Assembly: GCA_001817065.1 (NCBI GenBank)
Contig: MHHQ01000025.1
Span: forward strand, 55,528-119,527
DNA length: 64,000 nucleotides
Direction of reading: 5' to 3'
Origin: Candidatus Andersenbacteria bacterium RIFCSPHIGHO2_02_FULL_46_16
GTDB lineage: Bacteria; Patescibacteriota; Andersenbacteria; UBA10190
Every line of letters begins with the position of its first letter. Within the stretch, counting starts at the first letter, position 1. Both the position numbers and the translations under genes were made by a program. Shown here one piece after another: positions 27,600 to 64,000 of this stretch. The notes under the pieces are model-generated. The model saw only the letters and a program-made list of their open reading frames with translations. It was not told where the DNA came from and did no database searches.

Positions 27600-27608
27600 T
27601 GATAAATC

Positions 27609-41747: not shown

Positions 41748-42704
41748 TTATGCTCTCTGCTTTTCCTTGATAGCCTTCCCTGCATGAGCCATATACCACC
41801 GATGTGTTTCGGTTAGCCCTTGCAGCAGCGTATATTCGTGCTTATAACCCAACTTTCTTAGTTTCGACACATCTAATCGACGCAAAGGCATCCCGTCTGG
41901 CTTCGTGCCATCTAACACAATTTCTCCAGAATATCCTACAACCGTCTTTAACATTTCTACTAAATCTAAGATATTAATATCCTCACCAGTTCCTACATTA
42001 ATTATTTCTGGACTATTATATTTATCCATCAACAGCAATAAAGCACGCGCCAGATCGTCCACAAACATAAATTCCCTTCTCGGCTTGCCCGAGCCCCAGA
42101 CTTTTATAAACGGCTGGTTCGTCTCCTTCGCGACAACTAACTTATGCAATAATGCCGGTAACACATGGGCGAAACTATCGTTAAAAGTATCACCCGGACC
42201 ATATAAATTAGTGGGCATAGCTGAAATAAAATTGTCGCCATACTGGCGGTGGTATGCCTGACACAATTTAATCGCCGCGATTTTCGCGATAGCATATGCT
42301 TCGTTAGTCGGCTCCAGCTTACCAGTCATGAAATACTCCTCTCTAATTGGCTGCTGGCTATCTTTCGGATAAATGCAAGCACTGCCTAGGTTTAATAGTT
42401 TTTCAACCTTATGTTCATGCGAAGCATGAATTATATTCGTCGCTATTTGTAAATTTTGGTACAAAAAATCTACCGGGTGCGTATCATTGTCTAATATTCC
42501 ACCCACTCTAGCGGCAGCTATTATGACAAATTGCGGCCTCTGTCGCACAAACCAATGGTCTACGGCAGTTTTGTCAGTCAGATCCAGATCCTCTCTCGTT
42601 TGATATACCAGGTTAGTATACCCCTTCTTCCTTAACAATCTTACTACAGCCGATCCGACTAATCCACTATGTCCGGCAATATATATTTTGTCTGTTTTGT
42701 TCAT
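41748..42704 (-). CDS. fcl: GDP-L-fucose synthase (GDP-4-keto-6-deoxy-D-mannose 3,5-epimerase/4-reductase); a ColC-type enzyme cannot be excluded
   Basis: [69 protein letters not shown] and [16 protein letters not shown] match Fcl along the full length (318 aa). Confidence 0.85.
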   Translation of the reverse strand: [318 protein letters not shown]

Positions 42705-45214: not shown

Positions 45215-46201
45215 TCAATGATCTATTTTTACATTGCCAAGAGTACCGCGCAGACGCCCGCGGGAGTTTGGTGCTCGCAGCCAGTCCGCTAGCGTTTGAA
45301 AATATTTTGACAAACGTCCTCGACCCGGGAAATCAGGCAGTATTCGTTCTACCGAACGAATAGCTTTAATTGAATTTGACAGCCGGTCGATCTCCTTGTT
45401 GGACAGCCAACCATAAGAATTATTTGTTAGCTCCAAGGCATAGTCAAGATACCCATAGTGTAGGCAAATCAGCACCGCATAATATATTTTCAGTTTTTGC
45501 TGATCGGGTGACCAGTTATTTAATAGCTGGAAGTAGCTATTCATATTTCTAAGATATAAGGCATCCCCAGCTAATAATTGTCCTTTTCGGTTCCCATAGT
45601 TTAAACCAATCTGGCGCTTGAAGTATTGTGGCCGTATATCAAAAAGATAGAAACCAAGAGACTGCAAATACTGGTCGACCTGGGAAAATAGCGGCTGTTT
45701 CTGGTAAAGTGGCGCGAACTCGATCTCAACTTCCACGCCAAACCCGTATTTTTGCAAAAATTTATTCCCACCCTGCAGAATTAGCAGTTCAGAACCTTGC
45801 GTATCTAGTTGCAAAAAGTCACCACTCGTTACCAAACCTTCCTGATTAAGATTATCCAGTGTGTCGACTTTTACTTCCGATTGACCTGTTAATTGAAAGT
45901 AGTCGGCAACTGCAAACCGGTCTAAAAAATCCTGGTTTGGTTTATAAATTGAAGAGACAGCTGGATTTTTAGTTTGGTAAAAGGTAACCGAGTCGCGGTG
46001 GTCCAACAAACCTATATTAATATAATGTTGATTATCCAACTGTGGTAAATTGAGATAAGAATTAGGATCTGGTTCAAAACCAATTACGTTTAACAGATCA
46101 GCGTACGGCCGCCAATGTTCTGGCAATCCACCGCTCGCGCCAATCAGTAAAAATGTCAGCGGATGACTGCCAACTTCCTTTGTTAATACGGTCGGTAGCA
46201 T
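45215..46201 (-). CDS. FkbM-family methyltransferase-like
   Basis: FLLIGASGGLPEHW...VIGFEPDPNSY and LQLDTQGSELLILQGG match the FkbM motifs. Confidence 0.55.
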   Translation of the reverse strand: MLPTVLTKEVGSHPLTFLLIGASGGLPEHWRPYADLLNVIGFEPDPNSYLNLPQLDNQHYINIGLLDHRDSVTFYQTKNPAVSSIYKPNQDFLDRFAVADYFQLTGQSEVKVDTLDNLNQEGLVTSGDFLQLDTQGSELLILQGGNKFLQKYGFGVEVEIEFAPLYQKQPLFSQVDQYLQSLGFYLFDIRPQYFKRQIGLNYGNRKGQLLAGDALYLRNMNSYFQLLNNWSPDQQKLKIYYAVLICLHYGYLDYALELTNNSYGWLSNKEIDRLSNSIKAIRSVERILPDFPGRGRLSKYFQTLADWLRAPNSRGRLRGTLGNVKIDH

Positions 46202-48879: not shown

Positions 48880-49839
48880 CTATTTTATTTTTACCACTGG
48901 CGCCTCTTCTTGCCTTCTGATTATTTTTTCCACTATAAACTCTTCCACCTTCCTCATTTCCTCCCCTGTTGCCCCCCCTATATGCGGCGTAATAATGACA
49001 TTGCGATGTTTCTTGGCATATTTCACTATTGGACATTTGCTTATCTCGCCATTCATCTCGTCGGTTATCACATCCAGCCCGGCACCGCCAATCCGGCCAG
49101 CCTCTAGCGCCTTGATTAAATCCTGCTCTCGAACGACCGCGCCCCGGCTGGTATTAACCATCAGCTGGCCCATCTTAGCTTGCCTAAAATATTCCGCTCC
49201 TATCAATCCGGCCGTCTCGCCATTCAGTGGTACATGTATCGATACAATATCTGCCGTCTTTGCCAGCTCTGCCAAGGTTTCCGCTTTTGTATATTTAGTC
49301 CTTTTAACATAGGGATCATAGTATACAATCTGGCACCCGAAGTTTTTAGTTAACTTAGCGGTCATTTTACCCAACCGTCCCATACCGATAATTCCCACGG
49401 TTTTTCCTCGCATTGATCTTCCTATCCATCGATCCCTCTCCCATTTTCCTGCCAACACCGCTTGGCTCGCCGGCAGAATATGACGCATTAAATTAAGCAT
49501 TAAGCTTATCGACAATTCTGCTGTTGGCGTAATTGTTTTCAAGAACATTGACTCTCCCTGCAGCGAAATAATTTTAATTCTCCTCTCCTTTGCCGCTAAC
49601 AAGTCTATGTGGTCAATGCCAGTCGTGGGCGTCGCAATAAACTTAAGTCGGGGAGCGCTGTTTATAAGCAACTTGTCCACCTTTATTCCTAATCGAACAA
49701 TAATCCCTTCAAAATCATGAATATTATTTTTTAATTCTTCATAATCATACTGCCTAGCAACAACCTCGCACCCCGCGCGCTCTAGGTTTTCTATTGCCGT
49801 TTGGCTAAAATCCCTAGCTTCAGTAATTAATATTTTCAT
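48880..49839 (-). CDS. D-isomer-specific 2-hydroxyacid dehydrogenase family (NAD-binding)
   Basis: GKTVGIIGMGRLGKMTAKLTKNFGCQIVYYDP is the GxGxxG Rossmann motif. LDVITDE...PHIGGAT is the catalytic region. Confidence 0.75.
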   Translation of the reverse strand: MKILITEARDFSQTAIENLERAGCEVVARQYDYEELKNNIHDFEGIIVRLGIKVDKLLINSAPRLKFIATPTTGIDHIDLLAAKERRIKIISLQGESMFLKTITPTAELSISLMLNLMRHILPASQAVLAGKWERDRWIGRSMRGKTVGIIGMGRLGKMTAKLTKNFGCQIVYYDPYVKRTKYTKAETLAELAKTADIVSIHVPLNGETAGLIGAEYFRQAKMGQLMVNTSRGAVVREQDLIKALEAGRIGGAGLDVITDEMNGEISKCPIVKYAKKHRNVIITPHIGGATGEEMRKVEEFIVEKIIRRQEEAPVVKIK

Positions 49840-50606
49840 AAGTATCTTCGTCCTAGTTTCTGATTACTAAACACCAAGTTTTGTCGTTGGGTTTTATGTA
49901 AGTAGTATTCCGCCCGCTCTAAGTCATCTATCGAGTCGATATTCACCGAGCGATCAAGCGGCATGATGTAGGGTCGGCAGTCCTTCGACACAAACTTTTT
50001 CTCTTTTAGTAAATATTCCGTCTTCACTAAATATATTGCCCCGTTCCGCCATAAAGTTGCGGGAAATTCCTGGCGCGGTTTTCCCGCCTGCGTCGGCACT
50101 ACCTGCTGCAGTTTGTCTCCATCAGCTAAATAATACATATACCACGGATGATAGCTTTCCACCCGCGCAAAACTACAAACGCTATTTACCCGGTATTTAA
50201 TGGCCAAATTTAAAGCTGCGTCGATATCGGCACTTATACGCAGCGGCGTTGTTGGCTGCAACAACAAGATATAATCGTATGTTTTTTCCGCCTTCTTCAA
50301 TATATCCTCTATCACCGCACGTATGTTAGTGTCATCCCGCGCCAATTCTTTCGGCCTTAAGTATGGTACGTTCCCTCCATATTCTAAAGCTACATTCCTT
50401 ATCTTCTCATCGTCCGTTGACACAATATAATCAAATTTGTGTCGCGCGTGTTGTATTGCTTCCAGTGTATAAGCCAATAAGGGCTTGCCGTTCAGCGGTG
50501 TTACATTCTTATGTTTTATCCCTTTCGATCCTTCCCTCGCCGGCACAATACCCAGTACCGATATCTCAGCCTCCTGCTTTGTATTTCTATTCACTTTATT
50601 AGTCAT
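49836..50606 (-). CDS. neuA: CMP-nonulosonic acid synthetase (acylneuraminate cytidylyltransferase family, NeuA/LegF/PseF-like)
   Basis: LGIVPAREGSKGIKHKNVTPLNGKPLL matches the ARxGSKGIPxKN signature of CTP_transf_3. Confidence 0.7.
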   Translation of the reverse strand: MTNKVNRNTKQEAEISVLGIVPAREGSKGIKHKNVTPLNGKPLLAYTLEAIQHARHKFDYIVSTDDEKIRNVALEYGGNVPYLRPKELARDDTNIRAVIEDILKKAEKTYDYILLLQPTTPLRISADIDAALNLAIKYRVNSVCSFARVESYHPWYMYYLADGDKLQQVVPTQAGKPRQEFPATLWRNGAIYLVKTEYLLKEKKFVSKDCRPYIMPLDRSVNIDSIDDLERAEYYLHKTQRQNLVFSNQKLGRRYL

Positions 50607-50607
50607 A

Positions 50608-51756
50608 TCAACCCACGCTATTTACTTGCTCTCTTTGTTCAGACTGAACTTTGGTCCTCATCTGTTTCACATCTTTTTCAGTAAATACTTCCCCCGCTTT
50701 AAAATCCCGCCAGACAACTTTATTAACTATGGTCTCATAATGCTCCGACCCAACTCCTTTTAGATAAACCTGTGGCCGCATAGCAAACACAGCCTCGGGC
50801 TGAATTATTTCACCCTTTTTAATATCTTGTGCACAAACCAAACTTTTTCTGAATAGTCCCCTAAACTTTGATCGGCTATCTACCAACTTAATTGTTTCTG
50901 CCCCCAAGATAATTTTATCATCAGTAATATCATCCACCCCCGTATGTACTCTTTTTACCATTTCAGCGTATTCGTCCGGCAACATAGACACTTTATGGTC
51001 TGATCCCCACAAGTCTCGGTCTAAGGAAAAATGTTTTTCAATTATAGTCGCCCCAATCTTCACCGCCTGCAATACCCCCACGAAGCCCCGTGAATGGTCA
51101 GAAAAACCCACCGGCTGCTTGTATCTGGTTCGTAAGAATTCAACCGTTCTAACATTTAACTCCTCGCTCGGGCAGGGGTATTTCGACACACAATGCAAGA
51201 TAGCCAATCGTTTGTTTCTGGCGCTAATAAATTTAACCGCCCGATCTACTTCCAATGTGCTGCTCATGCCAGTCGAAACAATAATTGGTTGCGGCAACTG
51301 CCGCAGGTAATCTAGCAACACAAAATCCAAAATATCGCCTGAACCAACCTTCCATAACTTTACACCTACCTTATTGAGCACCTGCGCTGCTCCTCGGCTC
51401 ATCGGCGTGGAAAAAAAGGTTATTCTGACTTCCTCACAATACCTCTTCAGCTCTTTCCACCAACTTACATCTGTGATTTGGCTGTTTCTTTTCACCCAAG
51501 CATATCGATCTGCCCCATTAAAATGAGGTGACACCACCTTAACTGGCCACTGCTCATCTTGATAATGGTGGGTTTGGAACTTAACCGCATCCGCTCCCGC
51601 CTCTTTGGCTTTATCGACTAACCTTTTTGCGTTCTGTAAGTATTGCCCTCTGCTTTGCTCCTTCTTTGTTTGAATGAAATTCTTCCCAACCTCGGCAATA
51701 AAAAATACCTTTCCCTCGCTTATCCTCTGCCAAATATCTTGTGTGCTCTCATGCAT
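50608..51756 (-). CDS. neuB: N-acylneuraminate (nonulosonate) synthase, NeuB/LegI/PseI-like, with a C-terminal SAF-like domain
   Basis: VFFIAEVGKNF...GADAVKFQTHH matches NeuB (iaEiG.NHnG....Ga.aaKFQ). A C-terminal extension of about 60 aa follows. Confidence 0.7.
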   Translation of the reverse strand: MHESTQDIWQRISEGKVFFIAEVGKNFIQTKKEQSRGQYLQNAKRLVDKAKEAGADAVKFQTHHYQDEQWPVKVVSPHFNGADRYAWVKRNSQITDVSWWKELKRYCEEVRITFFSTPMSRGAAQVLNKVGVKLWKVGSGDILDFVLLDYLRQLPQPIIVSTGMSSTLEVDRAVKFISARNKRLAILHCVSKYPCPSEELNVRTVEFLRTRYKQPVGFSDHSRGFVGVLQAVKIGATIIEKHFSLDRDLWGSDHKVSMLPDEYAEMVKRVHTGVDDITDDKIILGAETIKLVDSRSKFRGLFRKSLVCAQDIKKGEIIQPEAVFAMRPQVYLKGVGSEHYETIVNKVVWRDFKAGEVFTEKDVKQMRTKVQSEQREQVNSVG

Positions 51757-51786
51757 TCCCTTAAAACTACTACATCCTTACTCACG

Positions 51787-52998
51787 CTAATAGGTAATTG
51801 TCTTCTGCTTCTCAATCTTCACCAATTTCAGCACGGCCATGATCTTTTTAGCTGTCTTCCCATCGCCATACAACTTCGATGATTTATATCTGCCATGTTT
51901 TACTTGCTTAATGATTGCCTGTCTGATTTTCGTCGCTTCAAATGGTATGTTCATTACATTCTTGCCCATCAATCGGCCGTGTTGCCTCGTTCCGATATTG
52001 ATTGTCGGTACCCCCAACCAGCCGCACTCCTTTATGCCAGTTGATGAATTACCCACCACTGCTTGGGCTAAGTTCAAAACGTTGGCAAAATCTGCCGGTT
52101 TCAGATACCTGATAAAACGTATTTTATGCCTACCCTCATGTTCAATCTGCCATTCCCTGATTCGTTTTGCTATTGCGTCAGACCCCGCCCCCAAATTTGG
52201 CCATACCCAAACAGCCTGTATGTCACAGCTTAAAATTGCGCTAAGCAGGTGTTCCGCTTGCTCACGAGCATACTGGGCTTCCGTCGTAACTGGATTCAGC
52301 ATTACCACTAAATAAGGTTGGCCTAGGTTTAGCTGCGCTCCCACTCCATGGTTATTTACTATACTATTTGGCAACCGCTTATGAAACTTAAGGCGGTTCA
52401 AGAAATCGACATCTAAACTCCCTGCATTCCATATCCGGTCTCGTCGCTCTCCGAGCTTAATTAACCTTTGCTTGGCCTCATTATTAGTTACAAAATGTCC
52501 GTGCGCTAGTTTCGTCACGGCATGACGCACGCTTTCATCAATCGACCCGCTGACATCCCCGCCTTCTAAATGGATCAGGACTTTGTTTAAATATGCCGCT
52601 GCCGCTGCAATCGGTAAAATCTCAAAACGATCGCCTCGTACCACTACAATATCAGACTGCATGTTTTCCATCGCCGTAGCGAATTCCAGCATGCCGATCG
52701 CCGCTGTCTTGGCCATCCCCAAATGCTCGCCTCCCTCTATGGCCGTCGGAATTTGCATGTCCGGGACAAATCCGTTTAAACGCAGTTCTTCAATCACGTT
52801 GCCATAGCGGTACGTCAATGCGCCGCCTCCGACTATAATCTGCAGGTTGAACATCGGCGTCCTCTTAATCTCTTTTAATAATGTCATAAGTCGACTAAGA
52901 TGAGCCTTGTCAGTTATCACGACACAAATGTTTCTCTTGTTCATCAATTTACTATGGCGACAAATCCCAAACGCTTCAACTTGATATTTTGCGCCCAA
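51787..52998 (-). CDS. neuC: UDP-N-acetylglucosamine 2-epimerase (hydrolysing), NeuC/LegG-type
   Basis: VVRGDRFEILPIAAAAAYLNKVLIHLEGGDVSG...VTKLAHGHFVTNNEAKQRLIKLGE aligns with E. coli K1 NeuC (LGDRYEIFSVAIAAS...IHIHGGE...ITKMSKLHLTSTEEYKKRVIQLGE). The probable true start is the internal MNKRNICVV at 52944. Confidence 0.7.
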   Translation of the reverse strand: MGAKYQVEAFGICRHSKLMNKRNICVVITDKAHLSRLMTLLKEIKRTPMFNLQIIVGGGALTYRYGNVIEELRLNGFVPDMQIPTAIEGGEHLGMAKTAAIGMLEFATAMENMQSDIVVVRGDRFEILPIAAAAAYLNKVLIHLEGGDVSGSIDESVRHAVTKLAHGHFVTNNEAKQRLIKLGERRDRIWNAGSLDVDFLNRLKFHKRLPNSIVNNHGVGAQLNLGQPYLVVMLNPVTTEAQYAREQAEHLLSAILSCDIQAVWVWPNLGAGSDAIAKRIREWQIEHEGRHKIRFIRYLKPADFANVLNLAQAVVGNSSTGIKECGWLGVPTINIGTRQHGRLMGKNVMNIPFEATKIRQAIIKQVKHGRYKSSKLYGDGKTAKKIMAVLKLVKIEKQKTITY

Positions 52999-54495
52999 GG
53001 CTCAGCACTGCGGATATTCGATCACTTGCTGCCGCCTCTTAACCAAATAATCCCTCTCGGACAAATTGGCATCTATGTCGCTGATCAGGTCTTTTATGAC
53101 CGTCAATTAGCTGGTCCTCACAACTTTTCGGATTTCCCTGTGTCCTGGTTAAAGGAATGGGAAATTAACCAGCAAGCCAATCAAATCAAAATTGATCGCG
53201 TCAAACTTCAAACTTACGACGAACTTTATGGACAGCCTAATCTGTGGCCTGCCCTGATCGCCGACCGCCGTATCTTCTTAGGCCCCCTCACTAAATATAA
53301 ACAAGACTATTCTCCACGCCTGTCCTATCCGCGAATGCTACAGCGCTTGCAGGCATCTATCGAGCGTATCGAGCAGTTTATCAATCAAGTTAAACCCCAT
53401 GCGATTATTGGTTTTAATATGGTTACGCTGGATGAATTTATTTTTTACCTTATTGCCCGACAAAAAGGTATCCCTTATTGGCAAATGAAAAATGCCAAGA
53501 TTAATAACCTTATTACTCTTTTCCCTGATCCTTTGCGCATAGCCAGCTACTTAGATCGCCCCCGTCAACCAACCATCTCGGCCTCTTCATTGAACCAAGC
53601 CCGTCAATATTTGCAGCGCGCCCAAGCTAGAAACAGCACTTATGAAGGCCATATTATTCTAAAACCTCCCTCACTTACCTCACTTTTTTCTCCAACCATA
53701 GCCTCCAAACTCATCAAATCAACAATTTTTTCTTTGCTCAAGTCTGCTCATTATCCCGCGGACCACCAATCAGCCGGTCTATCCGCCGTCTGGCAATTTA
53801 ATGTGGTTAAACCGATTAATGCTATAAAACACCACCGCTACCTATCTCTTCATTACATGTCGCCGCACCACTTGCCCACGACTTCTTATGTGTTCTTCCC
53901 ACTGCATACCGAACCAGAAATTGCTTTATCTATTTACGGCCGCTATCATCAAAATCAAATTGAAGTAATCCGTAATATTGCTCAAAGTCTGCCTGTTACT
54001 TGGTCGCTCGTAGTCAAAGACCACCCACGCTCCTTAGGATTTCGTACCCTGCAGTACTACAAGAAACTGCTGCAGATACCTAATGTCAGACTGGTCAATC
54101 CATACTTATCATCCTGGGATGTGATTGAATCAGCTCAAGCAATTGTTACTATTTCCAGCTGGGTTGGCTTTGAAGCCATTATCGCTAAAAAACCGGTTGT
54201 CACCCTGGGCGAATGCACCTATAATTGTTTGCCAACTTCCATGGTTGTTAAGAACACGTCCTATTCTCAACTGTCTGCTGATATTAGTCGTGCCATTAAC
54301 CAGTATCACTACCGTGAGACTGATCTTCTTAATCACATTGCGACTGTCATCAGTCTCTCCTTCCCGATAAATATGTACAGCGACGTTCTGGCTAAGCCTA
54401 ACCGTCACTTTGACTCATCCGCCAAACAATCCGAGCAGGAACTCTGGTTCTCTTTTGCCCGCTACATCGTCTCCACTATCCATTCTCCACAATGA
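52900..54495 (+). CDS. Capsule_synth-family protein (KpsS/KpsC-like glycosyltransferase)
   Basis: LVVKDHPRS and AQAIVTISSWVGFEAIIAKKPVVTLGECTYN resemble the KpsC/KpsS (PF05159) HP and stGleAl..gkPVv.lG boxes. An alternative start is MATNPKRF at 52954. Confidence 0.5.
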   Translation: MSLVSYHDTNVSLVHQFTMATNPKRFNLIFCAQGSALRIFDHLLPPLNQIIPLGQIGIYVADQVFYDRQLAGPHNFSDFPVSWLKEWEINQQANQIKIDRVKLQTYDELYGQPNLWPALIADRRIFLGPLTKYKQDYSPRLSYPRMLQRLQASIERIEQFINQVKPHAIIGFNMVTLDEFIFYLIARQKGIPYWQMKNAKINNLITLFPDPLRIASYLDRPRQPTISASSLNQARQYLQRAQARNSTYEGHIILKPPSLTSLFSPTIASKLIKSTIFSLLKSAHYPADHQSAGLSAVWQFNVVKPINAIKHHRYLSLHYMSPHHLPTTSYVFFPLHTEPEIALSIYGRYHQNQIEVIRNIAQSLPVTWSLVVKDHPRSLGFRTLQYYKKLLQIPNVRLVNPYLSSWDVIESAQAIVTISSWVGFEAIIAKKPVVTLGECTYNCLPTSMVVKNTSYSQLSADISRAINQYHYRETDLLNHIATVISLSFPINMYSDVLAKPNRHFDSSAKQSEQELWFSFARYIVSTIHSPQ

Positions 54496-55540: not shown

Positions 55541-56281
55541 ATGTCCAATATTTTCTCCAATAATTACCTTGCCAATCGTCCAATTGAACTAGCTATGCAA
55601 AAGTTTGCGCGGCTTTTTTCCTCGTCTCAACAAGTTTTAGATATTGGGTGCGGTTATATGCCTTATAAAAAGTTCTTTTCCTGCCATTATATCGGTGCCG
55701 ACCCTCTGCCGGCCGTCCAGCCAGATATTGTTTGTGACGCTTGGCAGGTTCCCTACCCAGACCATTCCTTTGACGGAATTATCCTTAATCAATCCCTTGA
55801 GCATATCCTGCGACCAAATGCTACTGCCAAAGAAATCTATCGGGTGCTCAAACCAGGTGGTCGCTTGATCGTTACCACTCCCCAAACCATGAAGAATCAT
55901 AGTGTTGCTATCCCTTCAGCAGAGGCTCCTTTCAAAAATTTTAATCTGCTCAATCAGCCTTACTGGCAAAATGACTTCTTCCGCTTTACCAAATATGGCC
56001 TGATCGCTCTTTTCCATCAGTTTTCCATAACCGATATTTATGAAACAACTGGCTATTTTGCCTCCATTTTTCAACTAATCAACTATTTTTTTGCATCGTT
56101 GACTGATCAGCCTCATTTACTTTCCCCCCTCTATTTTTTGAACAATCTTGCTGGAAAAACTTGCGACCAAGCAGCCCATACTTACATCAATCTGAAATTG
56201 CCGCATGCTCGCAAATTCAATTACTTTATTTTCTCTTCTCTAACTATTAACTTAATTATGCTAGCCAAAAAACCCCATTAA
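55541..56281 (+). CDS. Class I SAM-dependent methyltransferase
   Basis: VLDIGCGYMPY is motif I. VLKPGGRLIVTTP is the post-II motif. Confidence 0.7.
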   Translation: MSNIFSNNYLANRPIELAMQKFARLFSSSQQVLDIGCGYMPYKKFFSCHYIGADPLPAVQPDIVCDAWQVPYPDHSFDGIILNQSLEHILRPNATAKEIYRVLKPGGRLIVTTPQTMKNHSVAIPSAEAPFKNFNLLNQPYWQNDFFRFTKYGLIALFHQFSITDIYETTGYFASIFQLINYFFASLTDQPHLLSPLYFLNNLAGKTCDQAAHTYINLKLPHARKFNYFIFSSLTINLIMLAKKPH

Positions 56282-56284
56282 GTT

Positions 56285-57049
56285 ATGCCGTCAACCTCTC
56301 GCTCAATCGTTTATCGTTTGCTCTGTCGCGTCAGACAATCTGTTCTTCACCGCCCTATCCTAAGCCTTCTCAGTCAGTTACATAATTCGTCCTATCATTG
56401 GTTTTCTTTCTTTGCCGCAGGGGATGGACCTCATCCCAAACACGCTATAACTAATTATCATCAGTTTTTTATTGATAACATCAAAACTAGTGACCAAGTC
56501 ATTGATCTTGGTTGTGGCCTGGGGGAACTGGCTTACGATTTAGCTAAAAAAGCCCGCTCTGTCATAGGCCTAGACTCAAGTGTCCGGTCTATTACTAAAG
56601 CCCAGCAGTCATATCGTCTCCCTAACCTAGTGTTCTCTATCGGGAACATAACTACGCCGCCTACCCAACAGCATTATGACGTGGCAGTGTTGTCCAATGT
56701 CTTAGAACATATCGAGCAGCGCATTGCGTTGCTCAAAGTTATCCAAACTTACACCAATACAATTCTGATCCGCGTGCCTCTGCTTACTCGTGATTGGATC
56801 ACTGTCTATAAACAACAACATGGGTTTGAGTATCGCTTAGACGATACCCATTTCATCGAATACTCGGTTGATTCTTTTCGTTCCGAGATCTCCACTGCCG
56901 GACTTTCCATTTCCTCCTGGCATATCGCCTTTGGTGAACTCTATGCTATCTGTCACCCCGCTTTGGTATCCACACCCTCCTATCCATCCAATTATCCGAC
57001 TATTTCATCAACTCCATCATCTAACGCACCATCCCTAATACCAAACTGA
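56285..57049 (+). CDS. Class I SAM-dependent methyltransferase
   Basis: VIDLGCGLGELAYDLAKKARSVIGLDSS is motif I. SNVLEHIEQR is the motif III region. Confidence 0.7.
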   Translation: MPSTSRSIVYRLLCRVRQSVLHRPILSLLSQLHNSSYHWFSFFAAGDGPHPKHAITNYHQFFIDNIKTSDQVIDLGCGLGELAYDLAKKARSVIGLDSSVRSITKAQQSYRLPNLVFSIGNITTPPTQQHYDVAVLSNVLEHIEQRIALLKVIQTYTNTILIRVPLLTRDWITVYKQQHGFEYRLDDTHFIEYSVDSFRSEISTAGLSISSWHIAFGELYAICHPALVSTPSYPSNYPTISSTPSSNAPSLIPN

Positions 57050-57053
57050 TTAT

Positions 57054-57398
57054 ATGACCATGCGCCTTAATGCCAAAATATTTATTGAGGGGCACACCGG
57101 GCTCGTTGGCTCAGCTCTCGTCCGTGCTCTTGATAAACGGAGCTATCGTAATCTTATTTTTCTTATGCAGAATTACGACAACGATGAAATTATTAACGTT
57201 GGCACTGGAGAGGATATTAGTATTGCTGATCTAGCCCACCTAATTGCCGATGTAGTTGGTTTTTCTGGTGACTTAATTATTGACTCTACTAAACCAGACG
57301 GCATGCCGCGCCGACTGCTTAATGTCTCGCGGCTACACGAGCTCGCATTTTTTCACCGCACCATCTTAGTCGAAGGTATCAAATCCACCTATGATTGA
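57054..57398 (+). pseudogene. fcl remnant: GDP-fucose synthase paralog with an in-frame internal deletion of about 190-200 codons
   Basis: The 114-aa ORF joins an Fcl N-terminus (KIFIEGHTGLVGSALVRALDKRSYRNLIF, compare [29 protein letters not shown] of the intact fcl at 41748..42704) directly to an Fcl C-terminus ([44 protein letters not shown], compare [45 protein letters not shown]). The catalytic core is missing. Confidence 0.8.
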
Positions 57399-57447
57399 TA
57401 TTTCACCTAAACCCCTTCATTCTCAATAAACAACCAAGTAACCTTTT

Positions 57448-58488
57448 ATGCCCAAACAGCGTCAGCTTAAAATAGTCATTAATACGCATTACGATTCATC
57501 CGGAACAAAAGTCTGCGTTGATGATCTTTCTCCTCTCCTTAAAAAAGCCGGGCACCACCTTGTTTATAACGACTGGGATCACTACAGCAATTACCAACTG
57601 GCCATTTTTATGTCGCCGGACGCGGCCATCACAAAGGCTAAGTCACAAAACTTCGCCATCAAAATATGCATCATGAATCCAATGACTGACTATCCCGCCT
57701 TGCAACGAAACGCCCGCGCCGCCGATGCACTGATTGTTGGATCACTGGAGCAGCGGGACGAGCAACTAAAATACAACCATAATATTTTCATCTACTACAT
57801 GTTTCCCGACATCAAGCCATTGCTCAAGCGTCATACCCCCAAAGAGCCCATTATTATTGGCTATCACGGCAATAAAGAACATCTCATCAATTTCTCTCCC
57901 CATGTCAACTTTGCCTTAGACAAACTGGCAAAACATTATCCCGTAGAACTTTGGTTAATGTACAACATAAGCAAATTAGGTCAGGTCACTAAGCGTTTGC
58001 CTCATCTCATAAAAATTCGTCATATCCAGTGGTCACCAGATAATTACCATCGGTTCTTATCACAAAGCGATATCGGTTTAGTAAACAACATTATTCCTAC
58101 TCCTCGCAACTATCTCCATCTATTCAATCAGCCCCTGACACGCTATTTCCACCTAAATTTACGTCCCTACCGTGCCCATGATACCCAAATTAGATTTAAA
58201 TACGGCACTAATCCCGGCCGCGTCTATGTCTTCAGTCAACTTGGTATTCCAGTTATATCCGACTTTGCCCCCTCCATGAGTCAGGTTATCCGCGACAATC
58301 ATAGCGGTTTAATCGTGAATTCCCCGGCTGGCTGGTATGACGCACTAGTCAAACTAACCACTAGCCATCAACTACGACAAATTTATAGTGATAATCTTCG
58401 TCAGAACATCAATGAGAATTTTTCTATCAACCATAATTTCCGGCAGCTCAATGACTTTCTTCTTGATCTTTGCCTCAATATTAAGTAA
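57448..58488 (+). CDS. Hypothetical protein, possibly GT-B-like
   Basis: 346-aa soluble ORF in the operon. No definitive motif. Confidence 0.35.
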   Translation: MPKQRQLKIVINTHYDSSGTKVCVDDLSPLLKKAGHHLVYNDWDHYSNYQLAIFMSPDAAITKAKSQNFAIKICIMNPMTDYPALQRNARAADALIVGSLEQRDEQLKYNHNIFIYYMFPDIKPLLKRHTPKEPIIIGYHGNKEHLINFSPHVNFALDKLAKHYPVELWLMYNISKLGQVTKRLPHLIKIRHIQWSPDNYHRFLSQSDIGLVNNIIPTPRNYLHLFNQPLTRYFHLNLRPYRAHDTQIRFKYGTNPGRVYVFSQLGIPVISDFAPSMSQVIRDNHSGLIVNSPAGWYDALVKLTTSHQLRQIYSDNLRQNINENFSINHNFRQLNDFLLDLCLNIK

Positions 58489-58542
58489 TCAAGACCAGTT
58501 TACAGACGTGCACGACGCTCAGGTACGGAGTAAAATAAAGCG

Positions 58543-59751
58543 ATGATTAAATTAGTTCCAGGACTTTTCCACAACGAGCAACAAACCAAACAGGAACTCT
58601 GCGATTTTATCCTGCACACTAACCAGCTAAGTATTGGACAGCAATGCTCCAATTTTGAGCAATCCTTTGCCGCCTGGCAGGGGCGCCGCCATTGTGTTCT
58701 ATTTAGCAGCGGCAGTTCTGCTAATCTAGCCCTTATTCAAGCCTTGCTTAATCTCCAATTGCTGGAGCGTGATCATTTAGTCGCTTTCTCTGCTCTCACT
58801 TGGGCGACCAATGTCATGCCTATTATTCAGCTCGGGTTAGAACCAATCCCCGTCGACGTTGAGCTAACCACGCTCAATGTATCTAGCCAAACTTTCCAAT
58901 CTGTTCTCGATCAGCACCCTAACATCAAGATGCTATTTTTGACTAACTTACTTGGCTTCTGCAGCGATTTAGAGCAGATTACCAGCCTCTGTGCAGAGCG
59001 CAATATCTTGCTCATTGAGGACAACTGCGAATCATTAGGTACTGAATATTTAGGCCGAAAACTAGGCAACTGGGGCCTGGCCAGCACGTTTTCTTTTTTT
59101 GTCGGTCATCACATGTCGACCATCGAAGGCGGTGCTGTTTGCACTGATGACCCCACGCTTGATCGTATGCTGCGCTTGGTAAGAGCGCATGGGTGGGACC
59201 GTAATTTATCCGATGAGGACAAAGTGCAAATCCGTCAGGAATTCCAGGTAGACGACACCTTCTTTGCAAATTTTACTTTTTACACCCTTGGCTATAATCT
59301 GCGGCCGACCGAAATTACCGGCTTTCTTGGCTCCAATCAGCTGCGCTATTTACCACAAACCATTCAACTGCGCCACCGCCAATGGCAAAAGTTCAACGCC
59401 GATCTTTCACGCAATCCGGACCTTATCCACCAAACAACTAGTCACTTGAGCCTCGTCTCTAATTTTGCCGTACCGATCGTGTGTCACACCAAGACAATTG
59501 CCGACCAATATATTAACCGTTTCAAAGCCGCTGATGTTGAAATTCGTCCGATTTTAGGCGGCTCAATTCCCGAGCAGCCCTTTTATCGCCAAGCTTATGG
59601 CGAGACCAAGCACTTAACCAATGCCCGCATCATTGACCAAGGTGGCTTTTACTTCGGCAATAACTCCGGCCTGACCGCCATGGAAATTGACCTGCTTCAT
59701 CAGTTGTGTCTCGGTCAAACAGTATTATCAGCCGTTGTCATGCCCGTCTAG
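58543..59751 (+). CDS. DegT/DnrJ/EryC1/StrS-family PLP enzyme, dehydratase subtype (ColD/E1 RfbH-like; His replaces the Schiff-base Lys)
   Basis: FSSGSSANLALIQALL, NCESLG and TFSFFVGHHMSTIEGGAV give the family fold. At the position of the catalytic Lys (SFhaxKnxxxGEGG) the sequence has His-His, as in ColD and E1 3-dehydrases. Confidence 0.6.
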   Translation: MIKLVPGLFHNEQQTKQELCDFILHTNQLSIGQQCSNFEQSFAAWQGRRHCVLFSSGSSANLALIQALLNLQLLERDHLVAFSALTWATNVMPIIQLGLEPIPVDVELTTLNVSSQTFQSVLDQHPNIKMLFLTNLLGFCSDLEQITSLCAERNILLIEDNCESLGTEYLGRKLGNWGLASTFSFFVGHHMSTIEGGAVCTDDPTLDRMLRLVRAHGWDRNLSDEDKVQIRQEFQVDDTFFANFTFYTLGYNLRPTEITGFLGSNQLRYLPQTIQLRHRQWQKFNADLSRNPDLIHQTTSHLSLVSNFAVPIVCHTKTIADQYINRFKAADVEIRPILGGSIPEQPFYRQAYGETKHLTNARIIDQGGFYFGNNSGLTAMEIDLLHQLCLGQTVLSAVVMPV

Positions 59752-59881
59752 CAGGACGCTAAATCTTCTTAGCTATCCATATAATATCACCACGCTTTTG
59801 TGCGATGATTAACAACGCCTTCTACTTTCTTATAACTGCCAATCCTTTTAACCATAACATCCCTGGCTATACACACACCGT

Positions 59882-61078
59882 TTGCTGATTGATAAGCCCT
59901 TTATTATGCCACTTACTTTATCGCCTGCGACGATCTACAATCATTTGCTTCTGTCTCTAGCTAAAAAGACCGTCATACTCAATTACCATAAATACTGCCC
60001 ACATCGTCTTGGTCACGCTATGCTTTATTATAAAACTGACTCTTTAACGTCTGGCTATTGGCATGAGTACTTACATACGAACCAGTGGGAAATAGCTGAA
60101 AAAGTTAGAATTCTCAATCAACTGGGTTATTGGGTAGACATTATCGATCGGGGCGCTTCCACCAATTGGCAGCCCGACGATATATACCAACTTTTTATTG
60201 GTATTGGCATTGATGGCTCCGGACATCACTATCTTCGTTTAGCCAAACAAGTTCCTTCAGCTATTAAAGTTCTCTACGCCACTAGCTCCAATCCAGATGA
60301 GCGTAATCAATTTGTCAAACAACGCTACTCAGACTTCGAGCAGCGCACCGGCCACGCCCTACCAATTTATCGTACTGCAGAGAATATCAACACTAGCCAA
60401 ACCGCCCAGATAACAGATCATATTATTTGTGTTGGCAACCACGTCACAAATCACACTTTTAAAAGTTTTAACCGCCCGATCCACAAGATATTTCTTTCCA
60501 CCTCACCCCGACTTGTTTTAGACTATGCTGCCTATCAAGAAAAAAAATCTCATAATTTTCTTTTTCTCTCTGGTGCTGGAAATATTCTAAAGGGTCTTGA
60601 TCTATTGCTGGAAACTTTTGCCAAACTGCCTCATTTAAATTTGTATGTTTGTACTGCGCTGGAGAGCGCATTTGTTCAACATTATAGCCGCTTGCTCGCT
60701 CAAACACCCAATATTCATATCGAAAACTTCGTCCGCATCCACAGTGAACGTTTTCGCTACTTAACTAATATTTGCGGCTACGTCATCTTACCATCCTGCA
60801 CGGAGGGCTGCGCTACCTCCGTCACCTCGTCTATGCGTCGCGGTCTAGTCCCAGTGGTTACCCGCCAATGCGGCATTGATGTTGAAAATTTTGGTCACTA
60901 CATTGACGATATCTCTATTCCTGGTCTGTCCACGCAAATATCCCAGCTGGCCACTGTTAATTCCACCCAGCTGCGCGAACGTGTGGCTCTTTCTTATCAG
61001 GCCTCTGCCCAATATACCCAGCGGGCTTTCTCTGTTAGCTTCACCCAAGCACTGCTGAGCATCCTTAAAACAACTTAG
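59882..61078 (+). CDS. Hypothetical protein with a GT-B-like C-terminal half
   Basis: 398 aa. LFLSGAGNILKGLDLLLETFAKL...ILPSCTEGCATSVTSSMRRGLVPVV resembles the donor-binding half of GT4-like enzymes. Confidence 0.4.
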   Translation: MLIDKPFIMPLTLSPATIYNHLLLSLAKKTVILNYHKYCPHRLGHAMLYYKTDSLTSGYWHEYLHTNQWEIAEKVRILNQLGYWVDIIDRGASTNWQPDDIYQLFIGIGIDGSGHHYLRLAKQVPSAIKVLYATSSNPDERNQFVKQRYSDFEQRTGHALPIYRTAENINTSQTAQITDHIICVGNHVTNHTFKSFNRPIHKIFLSTSPRLVLDYAAYQEKKSHNFLFLSGAGNILKGLDLLLETFAKLPHLNLYVCTALESAFVQHYSRLLAQTPNIHIENFVRIHSERFRYLTNICGYVILPSCTEGCATSVTSSMRRGLVPVVTRQCGIDVENFGHYIDDISIPGLSTQISQLATVNSTQLRERVALSYQASAQYTQRAFSVSFTQALLSILKTT

Positions 61079-61140
61079 GCGCCATCCAAAAATAACTTGG
61101 CTAGATCTCGTTCAATATGCGTCGAGATACGGCTTTCCCA

Positions 61141-61330
61141 ATTGCCTGCCGGCCATAGCTTTCCTTGACCGCCGTAGCCCTGCCTGCCGTCAGGCAGGTT
61201 TAGCGAAGGTGGTAGCGACGGCTGGAGCGAACCAGCAGCCGTAGCCAAGCTACGGTGAGTGATTCGTGATTGCCTGCCGGCCGTAGCCTTGGCGAAGGCT
61301 GGAGGAAAAGTCGTAGATTGGCGCATAGTG
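61141..61330. repeat. Degenerate GC-rich tandem duplication with hairpins in the 5' leader of the epimerase gene
   Basis: ATTGCCTGCCGGCC[A/G]TAGC occurs at 61141 and 61269. CCTGCC-GTCA-GGCAGG hairpin. CCGTAGC-CAA-GCTACGG hairpin. GGCGAAGG(C)TGG occurs twice. The local GC is well above neighbouring intergenic DNA. Confidence 0.5.
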
Positions 61331-61438
61331 GGCGAGAAATGGTTAAGTTATTTACGGATGGTAACTTAGTTGCATTAATTATTAGCCTGCTTATCACGGC
61401 CCGTTGTCGCTTAGACTGCAATTGCGTACTATATTATC

Positions 61439-62419
61439 ATGTCACATTTTCTCGTTACTGGCGGCGCCGGGTTCATCGGCACTAATATTGTACATTTTTT
61501 ATTAGCTAAACATCATCAGGTCACTGTTTTAGACAACCTCTCCACAGGCTATCTTGCCAACTTGGCTCCTGTCATGGATCGACTGACCTTTATTCAAGGA
61601 GACATTTGTGACCTGTCAACTGTTCAAGAAGCAGTCCATAATGTTGACTTTGTTCTGCATCAAGCTGCCTGGCGTGCCGTTGAAAAATCCATGGACCACC
61701 CCATTGAAGCACACCACAATAACGTTACGGGCACTCTTAATGTCTTGATGGCTGCCCGTGATGCAAAGGTTAAACGAGTCGTCCTAGCCTCATCGTCGGC
61801 CATTTATGGAGATAATGGATCACTATCTAACCAAGAGACCGCCCTACCCCGACCCGCCTCACCTTACGCAGTCGCTAAGCTTGCAGGGGAACAATATGCA
61901 ACCGTTTTTTACGAGCAATTTAACTTACCCACTATTTCCCTACGTTATTTCAATGCCTATGGACCATTCTCGCCGGCCGATTCCTCTTACTCCAATGTTA
62001 TACCGATCTTTGTCGACAATTTATTAAAAGGAACTCCCCCTACAATCCATTGGCACGGTCAGCAAAACAAAGATTTCATCTATGTCAGTGACATTGCACG
62101 TGCTAATTATTTGGCCGCAACACTCCCCAACCTTCCCTTCGGTTCCGCTTATAATATTGGTTCCGGCCATACGACATCAATCAATGAACTACTAGCCACT
62201 CTCCAAAACATTCTGCATACCAACCTTGTGCCATTACATTCACCTAAGCGACCCGGTGATGTACTAACTGCATTCTCGGACACATCAAAAGCAACACGAG
62301 AGCTGTCGTTTTCCGCTAAAGTATCACTTCGCCAAGGCCTGCAAAAATTTATTGATTGGTATCTCTCTCAATCCGAACCGCAACCTGCTGACCTTATCCA
62401 GCAATCCATTTCCGTCTAA
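61439..62419 (+). CDS. NAD-dependent nucleotide-sugar epimerase/dehydratase (GalE/WbpP-like UDP-hexose 4-epimerase family)
   Basis: FLVTGGAGFIGTNIV (GxxGxxG), YAVAKLAGEQ (YxxxK), 326 aa extended SDR. Confidence 0.75.
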   Translation: MSHFLVTGGAGFIGTNIVHFLLAKHHQVTVLDNLSTGYLANLAPVMDRLTFIQGDICDLSTVQEAVHNVDFVLHQAAWRAVEKSMDHPIEAHHNNVTGTLNVLMAARDAKVKRVVLASSSAIYGDNGSLSNQETALPRPASPYAVAKLAGEQYATVFYEQFNLPTISLRYFNAYGPFSPADSSYSNVIPIFVDNLLKGTPPTIHWHGQQNKDFIYVSDIARANYLAATLPNLPFGSAYNIGSGHTTSINELLATLQNILHTNLVPLHSPKRPGDVLTAFSDTSKATRELSFSAKVSLRQGLQKFIDWYLSQSEPQPADLIQQSISV

Positions 62420-62487
62420 ATTTGCGTTTAAACCCTATCTGCGTCCTGTCTGCCTTCTGAACAAATTCCTCGACTATCCGCGTTCTA

Positions 62488-63315
62488 TTAATCGTCCTTT
62501 TTACGACCAATATAATATACCGCCTTATAATCATCCCAGGACGTTCTGCCGGCTCGACCCTTCTTTTCCACGACTTGTCGGTATAAAACCTCCCAGTGTT
62601 TGGCCAAGAAATCATCAATCACTGACTGATCAACTTTTATCGGATGTCCGGCATCATATCTGTCCTTTAACACTTCTGTCAAATGTACACCATCATAATA
62701 TTTATCCGCAAACACCAAAACCGCTCCCGGGGCTGCAATATCTAGTACTTTCTGCCAAACTGCCTCAACATTTTGGCAATGCTCCAACACATTAATCAGC
62801 AAAATTAAATCAAACTTCTTCTCTGTTTGAAAATCCTCAATGGAGCCTTCTATTACTTGTACGCTTTTTCGTCTTGGCCAATTAACATTGGTCACCAGAC
62901 GTTCCCATATCCACATTTGCCCGCCTTTATAACGACAAAAAGGATGTTTGAGATATTTTTTAATTAACGGGTCTAGCAAATAAATCTCCCCTACTTTTGT
63001 CACGCCACCGACATGTCTTAAATTAGTAAATGGCCCGCACCCTAGCTCAATGCCATTTTTGAATGACATACCACGCAGCACCTCATAATCTCCAAACGCT
63101 TTTTTATGGAAATTGTTATTATCCTCATGCGTCCAACGTCCATCTACCATCCACGTTTTCAGTTCAAACTCTTGTGCTTTTTGCCATCTTGCCTGGTCAA
63201 TTTGCAGGACGCCAGCTTTGCCAGTTAGCCATTTTAAATCATTGTCTTGCTCTAGTTTTTTCCGTGCATCTTCTCCCTCTAAGACTGTCCTGTTGCTGCC
63301 AATATATATACTCAT
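62488..63315 (-). CDS. SAM-dependent methyltransferase
   Basis: IELGCGPFTNL (motif I-like) and LINVLEHCQN. Confidence 0.6.
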   Translation of the reverse strand: MSIYIGSNRTVLEGEDARKKLEQDNDLKWLTGKAGVLQIDQARWQKAQEFELKTWMVDGRWTHEDNNNFHKKAFGDYEVLRGMSFKNGIELGCGPFTNLRHVGGVTKVGEIYLLDPLIKKYLKHPFCRYKGGQMWIWERLVTNVNWPRRKSVQVIEGSIEDFQTEKKFDLILLINVLEHCQNVEAVWQKVLDIAAPGAVLVFADKYYDGVHLTEVLKDRYDAGHPIKVDQSVIDDFLAKHWEVLYRQVVEKKGRAGRTSWDDYKAVYYIGRKKDD

Positions 63316-64000
63316 ATTTTTAATCCTTGCTTAACTAAATTCTTTCTCAATACCCAATTCACGCTCCCAAAATATAAACCCCCTAGCACAACATAATAAA
63401 CAATCGATCCCGCCACTGCACCGCTAATACCCCACTTGGGTATCAATATTATATAAGCTATTATATTTGCAACTCCAGCTATTGCACCAATTCCCACAAA
63501 CAGACCTTCTCGTCTGTCCTTAATAAGCAAATAACTCCATATCGAAGCTAACAGATGAAAAGGTATTACCAACAGATACCATTGGGCAAAAACCACCGAT
63601 TCACGATACTGCTCGCCGAATAGACTTACTATCATAATCGGCGTCACCAGCCAGCCAACCGACAAACCGCCCACCACTATTGCCACTATCTTCCATCCTT
63701 GTGCCCGGTACCACCGAATGACTACCAACGTGCCATTCTTGTAAAGTCGGGGCACATAGGTCGAGATCACTCCGCCTATAACCAACTTCACACCCTCACC
63801 AATTTTCGTAGCAATAGCATATATAGCCAATGCTTCCAGTCCAAGCCAACCAACTAAAATCAGCCGATCTAGTCTTGAATACAGTACATTAAATATTTCC
63901 GATATAAATAATTTGTAGCCCGACTTCATCCAATTCTCTTCAACCAAATCATTAACCAGCAGCCGACTCACACGCCTGAAAAAGATAATATTAAACATCG
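63312..64000 (-). CDS. Polytopic membrane protein (Wzx/polysaccharide-biosynthesis C-terminal-like), probably truncated by the window edge
   Basis: 228 aa in the window with about 6 TM helices. ORF track start at 63998; the N-terminus may lie beyond 64000. Confidence 0.45.
   Translation of the reverse strand, partial: MFNIIFFRRVSRLLVNDLVEENWMKSGYKLFISEIFNVLYSRLDRLILVGWLGLEALAIYAIATKIGEGVKLVIGGVISTYVPRLYKNGTLVVIRWYRAQGWKIVAIVVGGLSVGWLVTPIMIVSLFGEQYRESVVFAQWYLLVIPFHLLASIWSYLLIKDRREGLFVGIGAIAGVANIIAYIILIPKWGISGAVAGSIVYYVVLGGLYFGSVNWVLRKNLVKQGLKI

Follow-up and report, generated by a model that had tools for sequence, protein, structure and literature searches.

What does an enzyme of the DegT family do when histidine takes the place of the lysine that binds pyridoxal 5'-phosphate (PLP), and which sugar comes out of its pathway? 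The question is raised by a gene at 58543..59751 on the plus strand of a 64,000-nucleotide stretch of DNA, called here the window, from the uncultured groundwater bacterium Candidatus Andersenbacteria bacterium RIFCSPHIGHO2_02_FULL_46_16 (GenBank assembly GCA_001817065.1, contig MHHQ01000025.1, positions 55,528 to 119,527 of the forward strand). The gene begins with ATG and codes for a protein of 402 amino acids (aa), named "DegT/DnrJ/EryC1/StrS aminotransferase" or "hypothetical protein" in GenBank and "CDP-6-deoxy-D-xylo-4-hexulose-3-dehydrase", that is E1, by JGI. These public annotations appear to be wrong or vague, and the E1 name of JGI conflicts with the absence of an iron-sulfur (Fe-S) motif. 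Pfam and PDB matches, an AlphaFold2 (AF2) model and the ratio of nonsynonymous to synonymous substitution rates (dN/dS) point instead to a predicted ColD-type, Fe-S-independent nucleoside diphosphate (NDP)-4-keto-6-deoxyhexose 3-dehydratase, dependent on pyridoxamine 5'-phosphate (PMP) and PLP. As the best joint explanation, which we hold to be probable though far from certain, we propose that this enzyme acts on guanosine diphosphate (GDP)-4-keto-6-deoxy-D-mannose and that an intact Fcl-type reductase of the same locus probably completes the synthesis of GDP-L-colitose.

A histidine at the Schiff-base position

The active-site block of the protein, TFSFFVGHHMSTIEGG, spans residues 182-197 (59086..59133, plus strand), and in it the Schiff-base lysine is replaced by His189, whose codon is 59107..59109. 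When the query protein, ColD, E1 and 120 database homologs are aligned by MAFFT, the column of His189 is that of His188 in ColD and His220 in E1. PDB entries of ColD mutants fix the catalytic column: 3b8x (H188N) has "n" in it, 2r0t (H188K) has "k", and the "nk" of 3gr9 (S187N/H188K) is aligned opposite Gly188-His189 of the query (His188 of ColD has index 190 in the PDB chain, owing to a two-residue tag). As a control, the lysine of a lysine-bearing DegT aminotransferase (DegT375 of locus L092, FSFYPTKNVG) aligns to His189. An earlier note on this DNA had claimed that histidine stands in place of the PLP-binding lysine, and this alignment with 3-dehydratases and an aminotransferase bears the claim out: the residue at the Schiff-base position is His, not Lys. 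Of the more than 7,600 homologs that a database search yielded, the best 120, which are 53-90% identical to the query and about 390-400 aa long, were analyzed. His189 is invariant in 120/120, as is the whole Val187-Gly188-His189 motif, and all 82 sequences of a second alignment, built from genome loci, have histidine at the catalytic column; the residue preceding it is Ser in 47 of these relatives, Gly in 29 and Ala in 6. Because independent assemblies carry the identical query protein on 15 contigs or more, His189 is not a sequencing error.

Two types of sugar 3-dehydratase have to be told apart. E1 and SpnQ contain a four-cysteine [2Fe-2S] motif and need a reductase; ColD has no cluster, its enamine is hydrolyzed and PMP is regenerated from glutamate (PMC8987622). 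Among all PDB sequences the best match of the query is ColD/WbdK (2gms, E-value 4.4e-60, query residues 21-387), followed by E1 (2.5e-32) and perosamine synthase (1e-26). The AF2 model (predicted local distance difference test, pLDDT, 92.5) was compared with the PDB by Foldseek: the top 12 hits are all ColD chains (template modeling (TM) scores 0.84-0.91, root mean square deviation about 2.4 Å), these are followed by GDP-perosamine synthase and PseC, with E1 only at rank 18. Sequence identity is 31.9% between query and ColD, 28.2% between query and E1, and 31.0% between ColD and E1. The [2Fe-2S] cysteines of E1, C193, C251, C253 and C261, correspond to C162, R220, L222 and I230 of the query and to C, R, L and a gap in ColD; thus a single one of the four is present in the query, the first, which ColD has as well, and in the query's family the first three positions are invariably C, R and L. 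The cysteine-rich insertion of E1 is likewise missing from the query in the alignment. Because three of the four cluster cysteines are lacking, the query is predicted, from sequence and model together, to be a ColD-type sugar 3-dehydratase of the DegT fold and not an E1-type one. The earlier note had spoken of a ColD/E1-type enzyme; the ColD half of that designation stands and the E1 half falls.

The cofactor site tells the same. Eleven ColD positions were mapped on the query, and ten are conserved: Gly56, Ser57, Trp88, Asp159, Glu162, Ser183, His188, Arg219, Asn248 and Arg331 of ColD are G57, S58, W87, D160, E163, S184, H189, R220, N252 and R335 of the query, each invariant among the 120 homologs. 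The only mapped position that differs is Ser187 of ColD, at which the query has Gly188. We take G56, S57, W88, D159, E162, S183, R219, N248' and R331 of ColD to be residues of the PMP/PLP site and the sugar-phosphate site, roles that were reportedly described by Cook and Holden in 2006-2008.

By analogy with ColD, the query would be a homodimeric enzyme that binds PMP non-covalently, because the Schiff-base lysine is His189. In the first step PMP would form a ketimine with C4 of the NDP-4-keto-6-deoxyhexose. His189 would then take the C4' proton and the 3-hydroxyl would be expelled, after which hydrolysis of the enamine would give NDP-4-keto-3,6-dideoxyhexose and ammonia. Finally, PLP would be returned to PMP by transamination with L-glutamate; this recycling, like the 3-deoxygenation itself, is predicted from the ColD precedent. 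A Fe-S cluster and an E3-type reductase would play no part. Gene calls were available for about 83 kb of contiguous sequence around the gene (record positions about 45.5-128.8 kb of MHHU01000044.1), and no E3-type reductase (Fer2 plus FAD/NAD-binding domains) was seen among them in precomputed Pfam lists, which are not exhaustive.

Could the protein nevertheless be a sugar aminotransferase, as its GenBank name implies? It is a member of the DegT_DnrJ_EryC1 family of Pfam (PF01041, 203.5 bits), it obtains partial scores on the PseC (146.7 bits) and LegC (118.4 bits) models, a NeuC/NeuB/NeuA-like nonulosonic-acid gene set lies nearby, and SpnQ is known to transaminate when its reductase is absent (PMC8987622). 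However, the query has no Schiff-base lysine, and its histidine is invariant in the family; the residue before the histidine is glycine and not the asparagine that was introduced when ColD was engineered towards an aminotransferase (3gr9); and ColD is the best match in both sequence and structure. The aminotransferase models PseC, LegC and ArnB give 95-147 bits, far under their cut-offs of 420-631 bits. No NCBIfam equivalog attains its cut-off for the query, the top one being RfbH (NF011936, 197.2 bits against 423). Moreover, a NeuC/NeuB/NeuA set needs no aminotransferase. We give this reading hardly any credence.

Gene partners of the clade and the sugar nucleotide

A scan of genome contigs for relatives of the dehydratase yielded 80 loci; individual loci are cited below by number. 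In a neighbor-joining (NJ) tree, ColD of E. coli falls within a clade in which the gene nearly always stands in a gmd - fcl-like - colD operon, and the query falls in a separate deep clade with glycine before the histidine (the "VGHH" clade). This second clade has thousands of members, about 32% identical to both ColD and E1. It is rich in bacteria of the candidate phyla radiation (CPR; Levy-, Gottesman-, Vogel- and Adlerbacteria, Peribacteria, Saccharibacteria) and is found also in Gammaproteobacteria, Chitinophaga, Myxococcota, Pirellulales and Pelagibacterales. The query thus lies outside the canonical ColD orthologous group, both by its identity to E. coli ColD and by its place in the tree. 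Characterized ColD-type enzymes of E. coli, Yersinia pseudotuberculosis and Campylobacter jejuni HS:5/HS:11 share 62-67% of their residues with each other (PMC10440746); because of this identity to E. coli ColD, those of C. jejuni and Y. pseudotuberculosis should belong, on sequence grounds, in the canonical clade. The literature searched held nothing relevant on colitose or dideoxyhexoses in CPR bacteria or Andersenbacteria.

For the nucleotide we turn to the neighbors of the gene in related genomes. Thirty loci of the query's own clade were probed by tblastn, with gmd scored at 250 bits or more (45-67% identity to Gmd of E. coli). A gmd gene was found in 15/30, a Fcl-like gene in 19/30, and either of them in 23/30. 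The order gmd - colD-like - fcl, with spacing of about 1.1 kb, recurs in L014, L021, L023 and L024, and two loci whose dehydratases are 64-65% identical to the query, L091 and L093, have the layout of the window: Fcl-like gene, glycosyltransferase gene, ColD-like gene. The recurrent tight partners of the clade are therefore enzymes of GDP-sugars, which supports GDP-4-keto-6-deoxy-D-mannose as the substrate; we regard it as the most likely one. The pathway part of our proposal, a GDP-linked substrate and a colitose-like product, is in our view a well-supported inference.

The window itself contains an intact gene of this kind. At 41748..42704 on the minus strand, 16 kb from the dehydratase, lies a 318-aa Fcl-type GDP-4-keto-6-deoxymannose 3,5-epimerase/4-reductase, named "GDP-fucose synthetase" in GenBank. 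The earlier note had placed a Fcl/ColC-type epimerase-reductase here, correctly: the NCBIfam model GDPFucSynFcl matches over its full length with 435.9 bits (cut-off 500). It is 46-53% identical to Fcl-like proteins from 10 loci of the clade, where their genes lie beside colD-like ones. We consider it a candidate for the surviving reductase of the pathway, and since it too requires the product of Gmd, we count its presence in the same locus in favor of a GDP-linked substrate. As the dedicated ColC/Fcl-like partner of the dehydratase is dead (see below), the 4-keto product would probably be finished by this intact Fcl, whose normal chemistry on a 3-deoxy substrate would yield GDP-L-colitose (3-deoxy-L-fucose). 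An alternative finisher would be a pair of proteins encoded about 10 kb downstream, a RmlC-type cupin and a 357-aa short-chain dehydrogenase/reductase (SDR), SDR357. Glycosyltransferases encoded on either side of the dehydratase gene in this very large surface-glycan locus would then install the sugar.

Several points weigh against the route to colitose. No gmd, manB or manC was found in the roughly 83 kb of contig around the gene, and tblastn with E. coli Gmd over the window and the flanks covered gave only weak SDR matches of up to 56 bits (in other loci the probe picks up gmd at 45-80% identity). The earlier note was thus right that the window lacks gmd, and the route from GDP-4-keto-6-deoxymannose that it had proposed is backed by the gene neighborhoods of the clade but not by this genome; Gmd would have to be encoded elsewhere in it and supply GDP-4-keto-6-deoxy-D-mannose from there. 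The partner reductase next to the dehydratase is destroyed. Among the nearest relatives (52-81% identity) gmd is rarer, adjacent in only 2/14 loci (L013 and L014). The tree was built by NJ and carries no support values, no characterized member of the clade was found in the literature searched, and identity to a characterized ColD is so low that the transfer of substrate by homology is weak. Lastly, genes of another nucleotide branch are found both in this genome and in two relatives. Just past the window end, about 9-13 kb downstream of the dehydratase (1559-5135 of L007), an operon codes for a RfbF-like protein of 261 aa (TIGR02623, full length), SDR357 and the RmlC-type cupin of 142 aa (PF00908, 37.6 bits), with a divergent 328-aa GalE/RmlB-like SDR (SDR328) beside it. 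In L012 and L016 a RfbF-like gene and a gene resembling cytidine diphosphate (CDP)-glucose 4,6-dehydratase (182 and 200.8 bits) lie within 4-9 kb of the colD-like gene.

These genes suggest that the same chemistry may be performed on CDP- (or other NDP-) 4-keto-6-deoxy-D-glucose from the RfbF-like branch. Such a route to a CDP-3,6-dideoxyhexose would need neither E3 nor an Fe-S cluster, and the cupin and SDR357 would carry out its last steps. The operon, some 9-11 kb downstream, is kept in the L005 lineage, and its SDR and cupin genes also in L090, where the contig ends; L012 and L016 have no gmd within 10 kb; and the ColD-type pathway of C. jejuni HS:5 employs a separate cupin epimerase and SDR reductase after the dehydratase step (PMC10440746). 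On the other hand, the tight and recurrent neighbors of the clade are gmd and Fcl-like genes, while RfbF-like genes occur in 3/30 loci and are never directly adjacent, and in L016 itself the colD-like gene is immediately followed by a strong Fcl gene (443 bits). The RfbF-like protein of our locus scores under the cut-off of its model (219.6 against 300.25 bits), and no recognizable CDP-glucose 4,6-dehydratase gene lies near the dehydratase: SDR357, SDR328 and SDR326 reach only 48-86 bits on TIGR02622. These three were rejected also as the missing 4,6-dehydratase in general, as SSSCSTYG, SSSSVYG and SSSAIYG replace the acidic motif in them. We find the CDP route unlikely.

Another substrate of the same general type would be GDP-6-deoxy-4-keto-heptose or UDP-2-acetamido-2,6-dideoxy-4-keto-hexose, leading to a 3,6-dideoxyheptose or to a 3-deoxy derivative of an N-acetylhexosamine (HexNAc). 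The PLP-dependent C3-dehydratases of C. jejuni HS:5 and HS:11, homologs of ColD, do use GDP-6-deoxy-4-keto-heptose, together with a cupin epimerase and an SDR, gene types that are present here (PMC10440746). For the HexNAc variant speaks a 465-aa PglF/PseB-like dehydratase encoded about 5 kb downstream (182.5 bits on the PseB model), which is the nearest recognizable 4,6-dehydratase and has no lysine-type DegT partner in the locus. Yet a PglF-like enzyme can pair with a plain 4-reductase, so that no DegT enzyme is needed. No heptose-nucleotide genes were seen in the gene calls of the locus, the PglF-type dehydratase accompanies members of the clade in no lineage but the query's own (L090), which led us to reject a UDP-HexNAc substrate supplied by it, and linkage at the level of the clade is again to gmd and fcl. 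Decidedly less probable than the CDP route, this pair of substrates does not displace GDP-4-keto-6-deoxy-D-mannose as our preferred one.

The search for relatives also brought up a third clade of histidine-bearing ColD-like proteins (L047, L059, L069, L075, L080, L082 and L089), which never has gmd or fcl nearby. Upstream genes were scanned in two of its loci. In L082 (7716-12048) the ColD-like gene is preceded by genes for a thiamine pyrophosphate-dependent E1_dh alpha subunit (PF00676) and a transketolase-like beta subunit, and in L047 by a gene for an E1_dh-type beta subunit. In most loci an SDR gene follows about 1.1 kb from the start of the ColD-like gene, and L059 has in addition an AsnB-like gene and a B12-radical-SAM gene. 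The third clade may represent an uncharacterized pathway to a branched or extended deoxysugar. Its SDR357-like partner was tried as a clue to the nucleotide in our locus and rejected, as the E1_dh-linked genes belong to a different pathway.

Retention of the gene in a large glycan locus

Two genes upstream of the dehydratase, at 57054..57398 on the plus strand, lies a 114-aa open reading frame (ORF) that is the remnant of a Fcl/ColC-like epimerase-reductase. An in-frame internal deletion has removed approximately residues 35-225 and with them the catalytic core: by blastp, remnant residues 3-36 correspond to Fcl 1-34 and residues 38-113 to Fcl 226-301, and the NCBIfam Fcl model covers only profile positions 218-299, plus the start of the N-terminal Rossmann fold. 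The earlier note had described a broken paralog of Fcl beside the dehydratase gene. A broken Fcl-like gene is indeed there, but with one gene in between, and its 51-56% protein identity to the intact Fcl comes with no DNA similarity. It did not arise as a recent copy of that gene, and it resembles the Fcl-like genes found next to colD-like genes elsewhere to about the same degree. Its position matches that of the Fcl-like gene in L091 and L093, and from their shared layout we infer that the remnant is the former dedicated partner reductase. The classical three-gene module is thus decayed at this locus, with the partner dead and gmd not in the locus.

If the partner is dead, the dehydratase might be a decaying relic as well, no longer part of any sugar pathway. 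The broken neighbor and the lack of gmd would agree with this, as would the fact that in another Andersenbacteria metagenome-assembled genome (locus tags A3G57_) the gene is split between two half-length ORF calls, OGY40086.1 (194 aa) and OGY40085.1 (191 aa); that split is either a frameshift, meaning pseudogenization in that population, or an assembly error. Against decay, dN/dS between the dehydratase and its 90%-identical ortholog in L005 is 0.042, over a synonymous divergence (dS) of about 1.5, which is near saturation; this ratio is among the lowest of five neighboring genes, and the partner reductase is lost in the L005 lineage too. Furthermore, the cofactor and catalytic residues are all intact, and the full-length ORF is identical across many assemblies. 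We find the relic very unlikely: with such a low dN/dS and the partner missing from both lineages, the dehydratase is, to judge from the rates of substitution, kept under strong purifying selection long after the loss of its partner.

The remnant is itself of some interest. It remains open as an in-frame ORF and is identical in four assemblies; in L005 only about 40 N-terminal codons of it are left (8676-8795), still recognizable in a lineage separated by dS above 1. The 5' end may have been kept for a non-coding reason, for example as a promoter or for translational coupling to the downstream glycosyltransferase gene.

Continued constraint on a dehydratase that lost its Fcl/ColC-type partner long ago, in a locus with no gmd, would also fit a different substrate, for instance an E3-independent route from CDP-4-keto-6-deoxyglucose via the RfbF-like/cupin/SDR operon, or an end product other than colitose. 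The "VGHH" clade would then be a third type of sugar 3-dehydratase, with a function of its own, and not a divergent ColD, which seems to us doubtful. We keep to GDP-4-keto-6-deoxy-D-mannose and a colitose-like product.

Between the remnant and the dehydratase, at 57448..58488 (plus strand), is a gene for a 346-aa protein, probably a GT-B-like glycosyltransferase: it has weak C-terminal similarity to GT1/GT4 and no significant Pfam match. It is under purifying selection (81% aa identity to L005, dN/dS 0.05), a GT1 gene takes the same position in L091 and L093, and the product is a candidate transferase for the dideoxy sugar. Immediately downstream of the dehydratase, at 59882..61078 (plus strand), follows a gene for a GT1-family-like glycosyltransferase, 398 aa as ORF with an uncertain start, which scores slightly under the threshold for Glycos_transf_1 of Pfam (25.4 bits). 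Synteny of this gene extends to L005 and L090.

The glycan locus as a whole exceeds 80 kb (window 1-64000 plus flanks, about 45-129 kb of MHHU01000044.1), which is an exceptionally large part of a CPR genome. It contains about 20 glycosyltransferase genes, at least 8 methyltransferase genes (FkbM-type ones lie at 39080-40775 and 45215-46201 of the window) and three flippase-like genes, as well as genes for a YfhO protein, a PMT_2 protein and several proteins of 640-750 aa without Pfam match (25668-29852). The nonulosonic-acid set lies on the minus strand and comprises genes for a NeuC-like UDP-GlcNAc 2-epimerase (51787-52998), a NeuB-like synthase (50608-51756), a CMP-transferase-like CTP_transf_3 protein (49836-50606) and a D-2-hydroxyacid dehydrogenase (48880-49839), with a divergently transcribed Capsule_synth gene (52900-54495) beside the set (48880-52998). 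This set points to a CPR bacterium that bears a sialic-acid-like sugar.

Two features of the DNA itself may be recorded. In the intergenic region 61079-61438 there is a local tandem duplication of about 128 bp (61141-61290), with ATTGCCTGCCGGCCRTAGCYTT at both 61141 and 61269; it contains GC-rich hairpin-like segments and creates spurious ORFs such as 61075..61326. Its length varies among assemblies of the same organism, the spacer being about 124 bp shorter in LCKH01000003. An Rfam scan of 56000..64000 gave no match, and no other copy of the duplication was found in the window. The second feature is GC skew, which on the plus strand is strongly negative nearly throughout the window (-0.10 to -0.35 per 2 kb, cumulative -7.2). 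The skew is negative regardless of gene orientation, as in the minus-strand block at 14.5-23.3 kb (-0.21 to -0.29), and comes near zero only at 44-46 kb. This strand asymmetry is much stronger than usual for bacteria.

If our proposal is true, an ultra-small groundwater bacterium of the CPR carries on its surface a 3,6-dideoxyhexose, a kind of sugar familiar above all from O-antigens of enteric pathogens. The finding leaves known chemistry unchanged: the protein would be a ColD-type member of an ordinary, known kind of enzyme, from a deep and apparently uncharacterized clade. A single enzyme assay would calibrate a family of thousands of sequences, and the dehydratase, still under constraint after the old deletion in its partner reductase, presents a small natural experiment in pathway rewiring.

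Comparison with known systems

The closest known system is ColD/WbdK, the GDP-4-keto-6-deoxy-D-mannose 3-dehydratase of E. coli O55:H7 (PDB IDs: 2GMS, 3B8X, 2R0T and 3GR9) and of Y. pseudotuberculosis. With it the query shares the DegT fold over residues 21-387 (TM 0.87-0.91), the catalytic histidine in place of lysine, the cofactor- and phosphate-site residues, the RAHGW(D/T)RNL block and the absence of a Fe-S cysteine motif; at the level of the clade it shares gmd and a Fcl/ColC-like reductase as gene partners. It differs in its low identity and separate deep clade, in Gly188 for Ser187, and in the broken partner reductase and missing local gmd of this genome. Gene order differs as well: gmd - colC - colD in the canonical case, and usually gmd - colD-like - fcl or fcl - glycosyltransferase - colD-like in the clade of the query.

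The systems of C. jejuni HS:5 and HS:11 resemble the query in their ColD-type, glutamate-recycled 3-deoxygenation, which is predicted here, and in the cupin and SDR gene types, which in our locus lie some 10 kb downstream. Unlike the query, their enzymes belong to the canonical clade by identity to ColD, and they act on a GDP-heptose.

E1 (RfbH/DdhC/AscC, CDP-6-deoxy-L-threo-D-glycero-4-hexulose 3-dehydrase, PDB ID: 3BCX) and SpnQ also have the DegT fold and histidine at the lysine position. Their first half-reaction, formation of the PMP ketimine followed by elimination of the 3-hydroxyl, is predicted to be common with the query. In contrast to it, they use four cysteines to bind a [2Fe-2S] cluster and depend on E3 or a ferredoxin reductase, and the RxxGxD block of E1 is followed by an insertion that is absent from the query. 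The aminotransferases DegT, PseC, ArnB and GDP-perosamine synthase, finally, are alike in fold and cofactor site; they retain the Schiff-base lysine where the query has histidine, which predicts dehydration of the sugar and not its amination.

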